Shown: in pieces, positions 5,503 to 10,879 of the stretch
Numbering within the stretch: position 1 is the stretch's first letter
How the letters are laid out: the number at the start of each line of letters is the position of its first letter
Notes under the pieces: model-generated
Seen by the model: the letters and a program-made list of their open reading frames with translations, nothing else
What the model was told of the DNA's origin: nothing
Databases searched by the model: none
Origin: a virus
Virus genome (UHGV): UHGV-0120148
DNA: 10,879 nt
Reading direction: 5' to 3' (one strand)
Position numbers and translations under genes: made by a program

Positions 5503-5574
5503 GGGTCAGTCGTATAAAGGTCATTACGGAAGGCTGTTAACCTTCTTATCGTGGTTCGAGTCCACGCTGCCCCC
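5503..5574 (+). tRNA. tRNA-like gene, anticodon GTT (Asn) by hand fold; atypical (one acceptor-stem mismatch, no encoded CCA); possibly a pseudo-tRNA
   Basis: Hand fold: acceptor gggtcag/ctgcccc (6 of 7 pairs), D-loop with GG, anticodon stem gaagg/ccttc with loop ctGTTaa, T-stem cgtgg/ccacg with T-loop ttcgagt (TTCRANY consensus). Confidence 0.4.
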
Positions 5575-5583
5575 TCCAAATAT

Positions 5584-5659
5584 GCTGGTTTAGCTCCAAT
5601 GGTAGAGCAGTCGCCTTGTAAGCGAATGGGTAGCGGTTCAAGTCCGTTAACCAGCACCA
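5584..5659 (+). tRNA. tRNA, anticodon TGT (Thr) by hand fold, with encoded CCA
   Basis: Perfect 7-bp acceptor stem gctggtt/aaccagc, D-arm gctc-caatggta-gagc, anticodon loop ctTGTaa, T-stem agcgg/ccgtt with T-loop ttcaagt, discriminator A plus CCA. Confidence 0.6.
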
Positions 5660-6951: not shown

Positions 6952-7088
6952 AATCTTAACTACAATATGATTCATTTTGATGATTGTTTCATAAGGAACA
7001 GTGAAGTAAGATCTAAGAGGAGTTAAATTTTATACAGTATAATCATAATATTGCAGCAAGGTGGTTATAATTGAAAGAATATTTAGAT

Positions 7089-8546
7089 ATGAATACATCT
7101 CATGTAAGAGTTGTTACTCATATGTGTGGGTTCCTGGTTTGGCTCTATAGTCTTTCAATGTTGCCACCAATGGTTGTAGCATTGTTTTATAAAGAAAAAA
7201 GCCTGTTCGTTTTCTTTATAACTTTCGTTATATTTTTTTGCATTGGTGGCGGAGCGTGGTATACAACTAAGAAATCTGGCATTCAATTACGTACCCGTGA
7301 TGGGTTTATTATAATTGTAATGTTTTGGATTTTGTTTTCTGTTATTAGTGCATTCCCTTTATGGATTGACTCAGAACTTAATTTAACGTTCATTGATGCT
7401 CTGTTTGAAGGGGTTTCTGGAATAACAACAACAGGAGCAACTGTAATTGATGATGTTAGTTCATTACCTCGGGCATATTTGTACTATCGGTCACAGTTAA
7501 ATTTTATAGGTGGTTTAGGAGTTATTGTTCTGGCGGTTGCTGTATTGCCATTATTGGGTATTGGTGGTACAAAGCTTTATCAGTCAGAAATGCCGGGGCC
7601 ATTTAAGGATGACAAACTCACTCCCCGCCTGGCCGATACGTCACGGACACTGTGGATAACTTATTCTTTATTAGGTATTGCTTGTATTGTCTGTTATAGA
7701 CTTGCAGGAATGCCTTTGTTTGATGCTATTTGTCACGGGATTTCCACAGTTTCGCTTGGTGGTTTCTCAACTCATAGCGAGAGTATCGGATATTTTAATA
7801 ACTATTTGGTTGAGCTGGTGGCTGGTTCTTTTTCCCTGCTATCGGCTTTCAACTTCACTCTTTGGTATATTGTTATTAGCAGGAAAACGATAAAACCTTT
7901 AATCAGAGATATTGAACTTCGTTTCTTTCTGTTAATAGCCTTAGGGGTGATCATTGTTACCTCTTTCCAGGTCTGGCATATAGGTATGTATGACTTGCAT
8001 GGAAGTTTTATTCATTCGTTTTTTCTTGCCAGCTCCATGCTCACTGATAATGGTTTAGCTACGCAGGATTATGCAAACTGGCCCACGCACACGATAGTGT
8101 TTTTGCTGTCGTCAAGTTTCTTTGGGGGATGTATAGGTTCAACTTGTGGTGGAATTAAGTCACTTCGATTTCTTATACTTTTCAAACAAAGCAAACACGA
8201 GATAAATCAGCTTTCTCATCCCAGAGCGTTGTTGAGTGTAAATGTAGGAGGGAAGATAGTTACAGATCGTGTAATGAGGTCTGTATGGAGTTTCTTTTTT
8301 CTTTATACTCTCTTCACGGTGTTTTTTATACTGGTGTTAAATGGTATGGGATATGATTTTCTTACATCATTTGCAACAGTGGCTGCATGTATTAATAATA
8401 TGGGATTAGGTTTTGGGGCTACTGCATCGTCATTCGGAGTGCTTAATGACATTGCAAAATATTTAATGTGCATAGCTATGATTCTTGGTCGCCTTGAAAT
8501 TTATCCTGTTATTATATTGTTTTCAGGTTTTTTTTGGCGCTCCTAA
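7089..8546 (+). CDS. trkG: TrkG/TrkH-family potassium uptake membrane protein (485 aa); prophage moron
   Basis: Polytopic membrane protein matching E. coli Rac-prophage TrkG from MNTSHVRVVTHMCGFLV... Strongly AT-rich relative to the flanking phage genes. An alternative TTG start at 7071 (6 codons upstream) has a better-placed RBS (aaggtgg). Confidence 0.88.
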   Translation: MNTSHVRVVTHMCGFLVWLYSLSMLPPMVVALFYKEKSLFVFFITFVIFFCIGGGAWYTTKKSGIQLRTRDGFIIIVMFWILFSVISAFPLWIDSELNLTFIDALFEGVSGITTTGATVIDDVSSLPRAYLYYRSQLNFIGGLGVIVLAVAVLPLLGIGGTKLYQSEMPGPFKDDKLTPRLADTSRTLWITYSLLGIACIVCYRLAGMPLFDAICHGISTVSLGGFSTHSESIGYFNNYLVELVAGSFSLLSAFNFTLWYIVISRKTIKPLIRDIELRFFLLIALGVIIVTSFQVWHIGMYDLHGSFIHSFFLASSMLTDNGLATQDYANWPTHTIVFLLSSSFFGGCIGSTCGGIKSLRFLILFKQSKHEINQLSHPRALLSVNVGGKIVTDRVMRSVWSFFFLYTLFTVFFILVLNGMGYDFLTSFATVAACINNMGLGFGATASSFGVLNDIAKYLMCIAMILGRLEIYPVIILFSGFFWRS

Positions 8547-8683: not shown

Positions 8684-9115
8684 ATGAGCGAGAAATTAAA
8701 GATAGTCTATCGCCCATTACAAGAATTGTCACCGTATGCGCACAACGCCAGGACGCACAGTACTGAGCAGGTGGCACAACTGGTAGAAAGTATTAAGCAA
8801 TTCGGCTGGACTAATCCGGTGCTGATTGACGAAAAGGGCGAAATTATTGCGGGTCACGGTCGTGTTATGGCGGCTGAAATGCTCAAAATGGATTCTGTTC
8901 CGGTCATTGTTCTGTCTGGCCTGACGGATGAGCAGAAAAAGGCGTACCGCCTGGCAGATAATCGCCTACCGATGAATGCTGGCTGGGATGAAGATCTGTT
9001 GCGGATGGAGCTGTCGGACCTAATCAATGCTGATTTTGATGTCTCCCTGACAGGCTTCGGCCCGACAGAAATTGATGAACTGTTGACGGATGTTTTGCCC
9101 GGTATCGGGCCTTAA
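8684..9115 (+). CDS. ParB-like nuclease domain protein (143 aa), probably a truncated N-terminal part of a larger protein
   Basis: ParB/Srx-like N-terminal domain features (IIAGHGRVMAA, RLADN) and the ...SLTGFGPTEIDELL linker that in phage ParB-methyltransferase fusions precedes a methylase domain; here the ORF stops about 15 codons later, 3 nt from the convergent tfa stop. Confidence 0.65.
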   Translation: MSEKLKIVYRPLQELSPYAHNARTHSTEQVAQLVESIKQFGWTNPVLIDEKGEIIAGHGRVMAAEMLKMDSVPVIVLSGLTDEQKKAYRLADNRLPMNAGWDEDLLRMELSDLINADFDVSLTGFGPTEIDELLTDVLPGIGP

Positions 9116-9118
9116 TTT

Positions 9119-9646
9119 TTACTCTGGTTTTTGTGGCCATTCAGGATTTGCCGTATCCACACGGCTGACCAGAACACTGTAGCGTTCCCATGCTTCCAGT
9201 CGTGTGCGTTCCTCGTCTGTTGCCATATTCAGCCTGACAGCGCGCTCCAGCGGCAAAATTACGGATTCAGCTTCGGAAAGCAAAGCTGCCTTCTGTAATT
9301 CCGCCTGTTGTTGCTGTTCATCTGCCGTATAAATCCGTTTAACCACAGCTCCGTCCCTAAACATCCACTTACTGGAATCATCAGCGCAGCGGTTGGCTGT
9401 AATATCTGGAACCTCAACGACGCTATAACCTTCAGGGTTAAGCGTGGAGGCATCTTTGGTGATGGCGACAATAATATTATTTGCATCGTAAACAATCTTT
9501 ATTGTGTCTGGCTGAAAGTTTTTCACTTCCTCATACCAGTTTTTTCCGTCTTCGGACCATAACCAGATAACATCAAAATTCTTTGTTAGCTGATATTGTT
9601 CTTTTGTTTTTGGATTTCCAGACTTAATATTTTTTAAATGCTGCAT
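9119..9646 (-). CDS. tfa: Tail fibre assembly protein (Tfa / Mu U' type, 175 aa)
   Basis: C-terminal conserved Tfa motif ...[25 protein letters not shown]...; located immediately downstream of the tail-fibre variable segment on the same strand. Confidence 0.8.
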
Positions 9647-9649
9647 AAA

Positions 9650-10654
9650 TTACACCTGTACGACGTTATACCATGTGCCATTGATGTATTTTTGTATTGG
9701 TCTGAATACTGCCGGATCATCGCCATCAACTGCACCGATAATGCCAAGCCCCGTAATTGCATGACCTGATTTCTCATACATCACGCCTTTTTGCATAGTC
9801 TGAACAACACGTGTACCAAGTCGGACATCTCTCACATAACGTGAGTCAAAATTACCATAATTGCCGGGAATAACTTGCGCACCGCAAAGCCAGTTGCCAT
9901 TGTTGTCCATGTACGCCTGACCATCGGTGCCATTGGCTGTCCTTGAGTTATTAATCATGTAGATGCCAAATTGCTTATTCCCCAGTCCACCAATCATAAA
10001 TTTGCGATCAGCGTGGTCCTGACGAAGTAATGCCTGCGCACCATCGGTGGATACCGCATTGCGTCCCAAAATAACATTCTGGTCACGCATATGAATCCAC
10101 ATGCCGGTACTACTGTTAATTGCAAAACGGTTTGCAAATATATCCCCTGTAACATCAAGACCATGCCCCATGCTTATCCGACCAGTTCTGAGATTAAGCG
10201 TAAAGGGGCGTAGTGGCCCTATATCACCATTTTCTCCCTCATTCTCTCGTGTAGGGATGATATGCAGGCATTCTTCAGAACGACGAAAAATAGCACCAAA
10301 AGATGAATTAAATATCCTCAGTGCATTGACTGTCGATATTTTTACTTCACTGCTGAAAAGGGCTTTAACAAGGACAGACAAAGCATCCCATTTAAGAGTC
10401 ATCAGGTCTTTTGTTGTGGTGCTCTGGCGGCTTCTCCATTTGAAATATTCATTGCCGTTGTCGCCTGTTTCAAACCACATGTATGAATCAGTGTCGCTGT
10501 CGGCATTATTTTTAAAACCAATCTTTGCCCAGTCAGTATTTCTAATCCAGGCAAGGATTGAGTCGTTTTCAAAAGTAAGCCCACCGGACAAGGTATCGCC
10601 ATTCTTTTGCACGGCGTTCCTGGCCCTGTTTACCGTTTCCTGTAAACCGAGGTT
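9650..10654 (-). CDS. Tail fibre protein, variable C-terminal segment (Sv'-type) lacking the constant N-terminal part; silent cassette
   Basis: Open frame on the minus strand runs from inside the gix-like site (encoding NLGLQETVNRARNA, as in Mu/P1/e14 tail-fibre junctions) to the stop at 9650. No start codon or N-terminal constant domain is present; the ORF-track start at 10612 is an internal GTG. Gly/Asn-rich, fibre-like composition. Confidence 0.7.
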   Translation of the reverse strand, partial: NLGLQETVNRARNAVQKNGDTLSGGLTFENDSILAWIRNTDWAKIGFKNNADSDTDSYMWFETGDNGNEYFKWRSRQSTTTKDLMTLKWDALSVLVKALFSSEVKISTVNALRIFNSSFGAIFRRSEECLHIIPTRENEGENGDIGPLRPFTLNLRTGRISMGHGLDVTGDIFANRFAINSSTGMWIHMRDQNVILGRNAVSTDGAQALLRQDHADRKFMIGGLGNKQFGIYMINNSRTANGTDGQAYMDNNGNWLCGAQVIPGNYGNFDSRYVRDVRLGTRVVQTMQKGVMYEKSGHAITGLGIIGAVDGDDPAVFRPIQKYINGTWYNVVQV

Positions 10655-10662
10655 TTAGATAA
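10637..10662. other. Site-specific inversion crossover site (gix/pix-like, 26 bp) for a Gin/Pin-family invertase
   Basis: ttcctgtaaaccgaggttttagataa differs at one position from the Mu gix site as I recall it (TTCCTGTAAACCGAGGTTTTGGATAA); positioned between the 5' end of the silent tail-fibre segment and the invertase gene. Confidence 0.7.
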
Positions 10663-10716
10663 TGGCGGTTTCTGGCCTGCATGGCATGATTTGTGCTTTT
10701 GGACGGGAGATTCAGC

Positions 10717-10842
10717 GTGCTGATTGGCTATGTAAGGGTATCAACAAATGACCAGAATACAGACCTGCAACGAAACGCTCTTGTTTGTGCAGGATGTGAA
10801 CAAATATTTGAAGATAAATTAAGCGGGCACTGTTGCAAATAG
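10717..10842 (+). pseudogene. pin: Pin/Gin-family DNA invertase, N-terminal fragment (about 37 native codons) interrupted by IS26
   Basis: Translation [37 protein letters not shown] matches the serine-recombinase N-terminus of Pin/Gin (catalytic Ser in YVRVSTNDQ); the frame then reads into the IS26 inverted repeat and stops (HCCK*). Start appears to be GTG. Confidence 0.8.
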
Positions 10843-10879
10843 TCGGTGGTGATAAACTTATCATCCCCTTTTGCTGATG
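10826..10879 (+). mobile_element. IS26 (IS6 family), left terminal inverted repeat and first about 54 bp; continues beyond the window
   Basis: ggcactgttgcaaatagtcggtggtgataaacttatcatccccttttgctgatg matches the IS26 left end from recall, beginning with the 14-bp IR GGCACTGTTGCAAA; tnpA itself lies beyond the window. Confidence 0.85.

Follow-up and report, generated by a model that had tools for sequence, protein, structure and literature searches.

Prophage domestication is commonly described as random deletion filtered by selection. In the Rac prophage of Escherichia coli K-12, ynaK codes for an 87-aa ParB/Srx N-terminal domain protein and lies in the order trkG-ynaK followed by late-gene remnants (ydaY/tmpR/lomR fragments adjoin it); this gene is a 3'-truncated allele produced by an illegitimate deletion with 2-nt microhomology, in which ynaK is broken at nt 254 and joined to ydaY. 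Deletion hot spots with one fixed end are already known (Ter sites, rolling-circle origins), and those studied by Bierne, Michel and Ehrlich reportedly have their fixed endpoint at an arrested leading strand or at a nick. Invertible tail-fibre segments served by a Din-family invertase are known as Mu G/Gin, P1 C/Cin and e14 P/Pin. Finally, phage ParB-like proteins that consist of a nucleotide-binding domain (NBD) and a C-terminal domain (CTD), with no HTH, activate DNA base-modifying dioxygenases, among them the 5-methylpyrimidine (thymine) dioxygenases; the NBD and the CTD, a dimerisation domain, are both required, and the activator genes are found together with glycosyltransferase and terminase genes (O'Toole et al., PNAS 2026, PMC13229309).

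We describe here a 10,879-nucleotide stretch of the virus genome UHGV-0120148 (hereafter the window), which contains a new allele of the pseudogene type to which K-12 ynaK also belongs. The gene and the type of locus, next to trkG, are the same, and the allele is likewise truncated at its 3' end by an illegitimate deletion with a 2-nt overlap; the break is at ynaK nt 421 and the new partner is the spacer between two convergent tfa genes. The explanation that we consider highly probable as a whole is that of a 3'-truncated ynaK, joined through a TA to the tfa spacer at an endpoint that recurs among related prophages, the preferred mechanism being one that acts from a fixed 3' end.

The ynaK gene and its full-length parent

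The window is the right portion of a lambdoid prophage, with genes in the order DnaB-like helicase, NinB, NinF, NinG, NinH, NinI-like phosphatase, antiterminator Q, tRNA-Asn, tRNA-Thr, holin, lysozyme, Rz/Rz1 and trkG (7071–8546, + strand), a K+ transporter moron (TrkH, E = 8.9e-144) that is kept in every remnant examined. The open reading frame that follows (8684–9115, + strand; 143 codons plus a TAA at 9113–9115) encodes a ParB/Srx N-terminal domain remnant, with a match to ParB_N (PF02195) at residues 23–90 (E = 3.4e-7; 30.7 bits against a Pfam cutoff of 26.3). Membership of PF02195 follows from the profile score, which exceeds the curated cutoff, together with the GxxR(xxA) nucleotide-binding motif (GHGR), found here as AGHGRVMAA at residues 55–63 and aligned with AGERRYRAA of Thermus Spo0J; the Spo0J/ParB structures 1vz0, 4umk and 6sdk align with residues 7–93 of the 263-aa parent protein described below. 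A sequence-only reading of the window had recognised this domain, and had rightly pointed to a linker motif (SLTGFGPTEIDELL, residues 121–134 of the product), but the frame ends nine codons past the motif and not 15 as it gave.

The frame does stop, as was also noted there, within 3 nt (9116–9118) of the stop codon (9119–9121) of a convergent tail-fibre assembly gene, tfa' (9119–9646, - strand; Caudo_TAP, E = 6.6e-36). Beyond tfa' lie stf', an alternative C-terminal tail-fibre segment that has no N-terminus (9650–10612, - strand; Gp34_trimer, E = 4.5e-11), a 26-bp Pin/Gin-type crossover site read in the sequence (TTCCTGTAAACCGAGGTTTTAGATAA, 10637–10662), which we take to resemble the gix consensus, and the 5' fragment of a pin-family invertase gene (10693–10826, + strand), interrupted at 10826/10827 by the left end of IS26. 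Relatives of stf' carry the annotation of partial phage tail protein. In two related remnants, L001 and L002, the arrangement is tfa(+)/tfa'(-)/stf'(-)/pin. The right flank of the window therefore resembles the inverted half of the invertible segments of Mu, P1 and e14, with tfa' and stf' on the minus strand followed by a gix-like site and pin, and differs from them in having neither the constant part of stf nor the first variable half, and in the interruption of pin by IS26; neither inversion nor fibre production is any longer possible.

By megablast against complete E. coli genomes the locus is of the Rac type, a trkG-ynaK locus adjoining ompN/uspF, and its intact arrangement is present in the phage record ON470595 (L003) and in the prophage of strain L73 (L008/L009). 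There, trkG is followed by a 792-nt ynaK (263 aa), a 933-nt gene with a match to Pfam TAGT (TET-associated glycosyltransferase, E = 7.6e-35), a 69-codon ORF, terS (Terminase_2) and terL (Terminase_6N/6C), and past terL by the portal, head and tail genes, J, lom, stf, tfa and pinR. All of the morphogenetic genes found 3' of ynaK in these intact relatives are absent from the window, in agreement with the sequence-only reading: trkG/ynaK and the tail-fibre remnant have no terminase, portal, capsid or tail-shaft gene between them. The 263-aa form of YnaK is the dominant cluster (P0123, 1812 members), and homologues of 260–291 aa occur across the Enterobacterales (Salmonella, Citrobacter, Klebsiella, Serratia, Pantoea and Yersinia). 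The window is collinear with the full-length gene from 8684 to 9104 on the + strand (nt 1–421 of 792; codons 1–140 plus 1 nt), and sequence comparison identifies the ORF as an allele, truncated at its 3' end, of the ParB-like gene ynaK that Rac-type lambdoid prophages carry; truncated copies in its relatives are labelled 'incomplete; missing C-terminus' by PGAP. Full-length homologues of about 140 aa with the C-terminus of the window protein were not what we found, since the homologues are 263 aa long and end differently, and the stand-alone ParB-like nuclease that had been offered as an alternative is excluded because the ORF is a truncated gene.

The same comparison bears on what was lost, which had been supposed to be a DNA methyltransferase domain. 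The N-terminal 137–141 residues do match phrog_498 'DNA methyltransferase' (a 633-position profile, E = 2e-51), distant phage matches (about 53–55% identity) are annotated as methylases, and the phrog_498 fusions contain a ParB_N module and a helical linker (the GF.PTE..ELL motif region) that are homologous to the ynaK product; the sharing of this N-terminal module by fusions in distant phages explains the expectation. The full-length ynaK protein, unlike these fusions, has no methyltransferase domain. Its best PHROG is phrog_620 (217 positions), which the 263-aa parent covers from end to end and the window protein covers over profile positions 3–141; PF02195 is the only recognised Pfam domain in the homologues of 260–291 aa and in the parent, which has a short C-terminal domain besides, and at the DNA level the parent runs on into a C-terminal region of 123 codons with no methylase Pfam match. 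That the ORF is the N-terminal piece of a ParB-DNA methyltransferase fusion from which the methylase domain was deleted is thus exceedingly improbable, and is refuted for this lineage by the collinearity with L003 and L008.

The parent of the window gene is more like the ParB-like dioxygenase activators, in that it has an NBD and a CTD, has no recognised HTH and adjoins DNA-modification and terminase genes. It is unlike them in that its neighbour is a TAGT glycosyltransferase; no dioxygenase gene was seen in the inspected ynaK neighbourhood. The position of full-length ynaK beside the TAGT gene is suggestive of a DNA-modification module, as opposed to partition or methylation, and from this position and its domain architecture full-length YnaK is probably the ParB-like partner of such a module with TAGT, which corrects the earlier functional guess. 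The window ORF keeps the nucleotide-binding domain and has lost parent residues 141–263, and the window has no TAGT gene, so that this copy, unlike the characterised activators, has neither the required CTD nor a cognate modifying-enzyme gene. Because both the C-terminal domain and the neighbouring partner gene are missing, the 143-aa product is, judging from its homologues, probably non-functional. Taken alone, the ORF is an ordinary pseudogene allele in a decayed Rac-type prophage, of a kind already flagged by annotation pipelines.

The deletion junction in the window

Comparison of the window with intact L003 by blastn gives a match that stops at window position 9104 (L003 12421), and identity with the tfa-tfa' spacer of L001 and L002 begins at 9097. 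The right flank is collinear with L002 from 10532 and with L001 from 10382, where tfa(+) precedes it; both flanks of the junction align plus/plus, the left with L003 and the right with L002, at separate and distant positions, as expected of a deletion junction in a decayed prophage. The joint is a TA at 9103–9104 that is common to both parents (left, ...GCCCGGTA/CAGG; right, ...GGCCCGCTA/TCGGGCC); in longer form the left parent reads ...TTTTGCCCGGTA/CAGGAAAT and the right parent ...AAGGCCCGCTA/TCGGGCCTTAATTTTT, and the junction product is ...TTTTGCCCGGTATCGGGCCTTAATTTTT. What is left of the spacer that separates the convergent tfa genes (9105–9118, + strand, collinear with L002 and L001) supplies codons 141–143 (I, G, P), the stop codon and the 3-nt gap, with the A of codon 141 being ynaK nt 421 (9104); joining of the ends at the common TA has thus given the ORF its ending of three foreign codons and a stop. 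A terminator-like hairpin, GCCCG-GTAT-CGGGC followed by a T-run (9097–9110, + strand), is re-created by the junction from the tfa spacer hairpin GGCCCG-CTAT-CGGGCC. The TCGGG at the joint originates in the tfa spacer; a parental ynaK allele encoding 'IG', which would have provided a 13-nt microhomology, was considered and rejected, as all 170 of 170 contigs and L138 read GGTACAGG or close variants of it.

The lost DNA extends from ynaK nt 422 into the spacer of the convergent tfa pair and would amount to roughly 26–30 kb if removed in a single step, an estimate made from reference coordinates after subtraction of two IS3 copies in the reference. The prediction of one large deletion with an endpoint at about 9100–9118 is borne out as to the endpoint, the TA at 9103–9104; a single event is not demonstrable, because remnants that could be intermediates exist. 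L002 is broken at the same ynaK position as the window and joined 975 nt further left, L001 has an intact ynaK and a break in TAGT, and both retain the right-hand structure of the window plus 0.8–1.0 kb more. It may therefore be that the loss occurred in several steps and that the junction in the window was made by a second deletion, later and of less than a kilobase. An identical junction with the same IS26 is present in 24 complete genomes, both in chromosomes and in plasmids such as pABWA45_1, whose annotation shows a partial recombinase and then IS26.

Recurrence of the CCCGGTA endpoint

Among homologues with at least 97% identity to the 143-aa protein, the C-terminal tails are of many kinds. 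They derive from parts of TAGT, terS, terL, capsid and tail genes, J, Lom, Stf and Tfa, read in frame or out of frame, and sitA is also among the right-hand partners (L211). Break points were scored against the 263-aa parent with two protein searches pooled, the second of which used that parent as the query. Codon 140 is the break point of 25 distinct tails, codon 141 of six and codon 142 of five, ten fall at codons 165–167, and any other single codon has at most two (codons 92–137 together have 21). About 35 distinct protein tails begin directly after the heptamer CCCGGTA (9098–9104, + strand), a left endpoint that we designate HS1, that is seen in both DNA junctions and protein tails, and at which about 35–40 independent deletions in other E. 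coli strains start. The forward heptamer is present as a single copy in the ~39 kb reference, which extends from trkG through the late region into the flanking chromosome.

At the DNA level there are 13 distinct junctions that each read ...GCCCGGTA up to the break (the window type, L002, L004, L041, L050, L061, L083, L092, L109, L139, L162, L211 and L212). Two pattern scans, for which the query was restricted to the 26 nt left of the site and which returned 116 viral and 54 metagenomic contigs (170), place nine of about 36 distinct break points over the next 1400 nt at the one bond after CCCGGTA. Weaker clusters lie after CCGGATA, 75 nt downstream of the CCCGGTA site, after GCTGGCTA, about 450 nt downstream, and around TTCCGGAACCTACGTTA, about 1060 nt downstream. 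CCGG is found at HS1, at the secondary site HS2 and at the 1085 cluster, but is rejected as the determinant because this 1.4 kb contains four further CCGG sites at which breaks do not cluster. The region is present in 1064 complete genomes and is intact across the site in 956; sampled partial matches in complete genomes mostly stop at query nt 50/51, which is the CCCGGTA site.

A single event cannot produce different right-hand flanks, and these are therefore independent deletions, or successive ones that reuse the left end. Counting by distinct right-hand sequence in this way is also what makes it very improbable that the hotspot arose artificially, through ascertainment or through shared ancestry, from one old junction that has spread and is multiplied by database redundancy. 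The first protein query did end at the junction, which biases the ranking toward proteins that keep all 140 residues, and the window-type junction has indeed been inherited or spread as a unit, in the 24 complete genomes noted above and in IS26-bounded plasmid segments. The same pile-up is nonetheless obtained with the 263-aa query and with the pattern scans, the latter being independent of the window tail, and complete chromosomes add further distinct right partners.

The tails are collinear with the parental gene order in 40 of the 41 cases that could be mapped, and these are therefore deletions and not inversions. No leftward deletion ending at the site was seen among 106 contigs fished with the sequence just to its right, a polarity that could come in part from selection for retention of trkG. 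Lom, 'TPGDSN' and TAGT position 477 are right ends common to left ends at codon 140 and codon 165, which suggests that already deleted remnants may reuse the same left site. HS477 was considered as a fixed right end at which the CCCGG side is protected, and was rejected, as HS1-HS477 is the sole such junction in 153 contigs. By these counts the bond after CCCGGTA is a recurrent, nucleotide-precise start of rightward deletions across E. coli, with dozens of independent deletions setting out from this single phosphodiester bond and all extending the same way. Full-text literature searches on ynaK, Rac deletions, prophage deletion hot spots and the ParB/TAGT context gave no description of this endpoint, and a paper on the Rpn nuclease gives no site preference.

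Joints, partners and the origin of the fixed end

The joints are formed without gain or loss of bases, and TA is at the joint in 23 of the 26 right partners for which a parental context could be mapped, these contexts being read mostly from a single reference prophage and not from the true parents. An identical core dinucleotide and exact joints, as expected at a site-specific recombination site, are present. Longer upstream microhomology is not enriched among the partners (G at -1 in 6 of 23; background frequency, 0.24), and extended upstream microhomology was rejected as the driver on this account. The right partners are enriched for C at -4 (12/23) and G at +5 (14/23), an inverted CCGGG lies 0–2 nt downstream of the joint in 7 of 23 (against 5.5%; p = 1.7e-4), and the reference contains five copies of TACCGGG, three of which have served as partners; the flank enrichments are post hoc and come from 23 sites. 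This pattern fits protein recognition of half-sites better than simple annealing. The K-12 Rac junctions, both of which are elsewhere than at the hotspot, also have 2-nt overlaps (AA and CA), so two-base joints are normal for the locus and its special feature is the fixed left end.

We favour a mechanism in which the DNA is broken or nicked, or the polymerase arrested, at CCCGGTA in a site- and strand-specific way, which would leave a fixed 3' end (...GGTA) that is then joined to, or primes synthesis at, any downstream TA through the 2-nt microhomology. The lesion may originate from the phage terminase, from a different nuclease of phage or host, or from a replication barrier. A free double-strand end is expected to be resected by RecBCD, and a precise left end would therefore need either a protected end or a primer terminus. 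The resemblance to the known fixed-endpoint hot spots (Ter sites; the nick sites at the replication origins of M13 and pC194) is in one end being fixed to the nucleotide while the others vary, in the short homology and in the polarity. The ynaK site shows no evident Ter sequence, rolling-circle origin or nickase, and its partners have a flank preference that is not known to have been described for the Ter, M13 or pC194 systems.

A narrower proposal, which we make tentatively and consider somewhat unlikely, is that CCCGGTA and the weaker sites (spread over ~1.1 kb) are cut or nicked by a dedicated enzyme, which may be a terminase (at pac), a phage nuclease or a recombinase with a TA core. If this were so, loss of the morphogenetic module from Rac-type prophages would be a recurrent, polar and sequence-programmed deletion and not random decay, in which the lysis cassette, trkG and the ParB stub are left behind.

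One enzyme of this kind would be a conservative site-specific recombinase or TA-specific transposase for which the site is a pseudo-site, binding CCCGG, making a 2-bp stagger at TA and exchanging with any TA, preferably one before an inverted CCGGG, to give CCCGG-TA-CCGGG. It would account better for the preference at the partner flanks and for joints that are exact, with their TA in nearly all mapped partners; the indifference to longer upstream homology, the symmetric partner flanks (C at -4, G at +5) and the use of the inverted heptamer at three of its five copies agree with it, and the same prophage encodes a pin-family invertase. The cognate enzyme was not found, however, and we know of no recombinase with a CCCGG/TA site. 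The half-sites match those of the window pix site at only 2–3 of 12 positions, and an invertase should invert, yet all mappable tails save one are collinear deletions; a Pin pseudo-site was rejected on both counts. The inverted half-site is missing from most partners, the K-12 Rac junctions outside the hotspot have 2-nt overlaps as well, and the enrichments carry the post hoc caveat given above. We regard a recombinase or transposase as unlikely.

Another possibility, in our view quite unlikely, is that CCCGGTA and the weaker sites are series-initiation (pac) cuts made by a headful terminase in an unexcised prophage, with the left end staying in the chromosome and the survivors losing DNA in the direction of packaging. 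The site is ~1.5 kb upstream of terS, within the lysis-to-terminase interval typical for pac or cos, and deletions run only rightward, toward terS and the genes for the head. The TerL protein belongs to the T4/headful type, and a portal (DUF4055), an SPP1-gp7-like minor head protein and a P22-like coat are annotated nearby; the secondary clusters downstream resemble imprecise pac cleavage, and deletions that remove the terminase would put an end to self-inflicted breaks. In the headful phages P22, Sf6 and SPP1, however, pac is in or beside terS. An unpackaged left end should moreover be degraded and not survive with single-nucleotide precision, some of the hotspot deletions are small ones that spare both terS and terL, and deleted remnants seem to reuse the site (the Lom and TPGDSN tails with both codon-140 and codon-165 ends). 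The fixed-3'-end mechanism remains the one that we prefer.

Several other features of the site were considered. A hairpin or quasi-palindrome as the cause was rejected, as the secondary structure is not significant (DNA fold z = -0.16) and there are no inverted repeats at the CCCGGTA site. Iterons or a repeated binding motif were also rejected, as CGACGAAAATTGAT has only two copies and, with up to 3 mismatches allowed, five matches where chance predicts 3.3. By-eye, non-exhaustive comparison gave no convincing match to Chi, Ter, pix-like or FokI/Type III sites, or to IS terminal repeats (IS2, IS150, Tn3/gamma-delta).

The recurrence of the endpoint points to a specific lesion or enzyme that may shape the inactivation of a common prophage family while the trkG cargo is kept, and the site may reveal a packaging site or nicking activity of an unstudied phage group. 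It is also a defined substrate for the study of illegitimate recombination in E. coli. The heptamer lies within the coding sequence of ynaK, and CCAGGCACT is an example of its synonymous recoding.

Genes and deletion endpoints downstream of ynaK nt 421

In the phage record ON470595 (L003), an intact relative, the gene that follows full-length ynaK (coordinates 12785-13717) encodes a glycosyltransferase of the TAGT family (TET-associated, GREB1-related; Pfam E = 7.6e-35), and it carries the PHROG label 'beta-glucosyl-HMC-alpha-glucosyltransferase'. This gene is absent from the window. In the intact relatives, we saw neither a dioxygenase nor a hydroxymethylase among the annotated neighbours of ynaK. 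There are three recurrent secondary deletion endpoints, all downstream of the main one (the bond after CCCGGTA at ynaK nt 421). In L003 coordinates, the first is at 12496 (CCGGATA^) and is represented by 10 distinct protein tails, and the second is at 12870 (GCTGGCTA^TACCGGG), which is the left end of at least three exact junctions with TA joints and doubles as the right partner in deletions. The third is a 10-nt cluster at 13478-13488 (TTCCGGAACCTACGTTA) with seven distinct junctions, among which the microhomology is variable.

In E. coli XH987 (L211 5049-5669) a hotspot deletion fuses ynaK nt 421 straight to a truncated copy of the iron/manganese transporter gene sitA, which adjoins uspF/ompN; in this strain the Rac locus had sit genes at its right end, and these were reached by the deletion. 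One further Rac junction, at position ~1945, is common to two unrelated strains (L004 and L007) and joins recE, in antisense orientation, to the middle of Rz (...GCACCGGAA|CGCGGCAATT), with CCGGAA again adjoining it.

Mosaic boundary and tRNA genes

A mosaic boundary is located at window ~6273. In five relatives that have the same junction as the window (L027, L067, L147, L175 and L193), the match to the window is confined to the part rightward of 6273, and the nin-Q-holin-lysozyme part to the left derives from another lambdoid lineage. The interval from Q to the holin gene contains tRNA-Asn(GTT) and tRNA-Thr(TGT) genes (window 5503-5659); tRNA-Thr and tRNA-Gly genes occupy the same place in related Rac-type prophages.

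Tail-fibre segment and IS26 end

The tail-fibre assembly gene tfa' of the window differs from that of relatives (L027) by 15 substitutions in 76 nt (window 9245-9320), although the same relatives are otherwise 100% identical to the window from Rz through pin. This stretch looks like a short gene-conversion patch whose donor would be another tfa allele. The 26-bp crossover site for an invertase at window 10637-10662 (TTCCTGTAAACCGAGGTTTTAGATAA) is well preserved, with one mismatch to the Mu gix sequence. It is orphaned, as the window has neither a partner site nor an intact pin gene.

The pin fragment is cut by the IS26 left inverted repeat (GGCACTGTTGCAAATAGTCGGTGGTGATAAACTTATC...), in which the window ends (10827-10879). 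Because the same block, trkG-ynaK'-tfa'-stf'-pin'-IS26, is also found on plasmid pABWA45_1 and on further plasmids and chromosomes, we conclude that the Rac fragment in the window is IS26-bounded cargo that has been mobilised.
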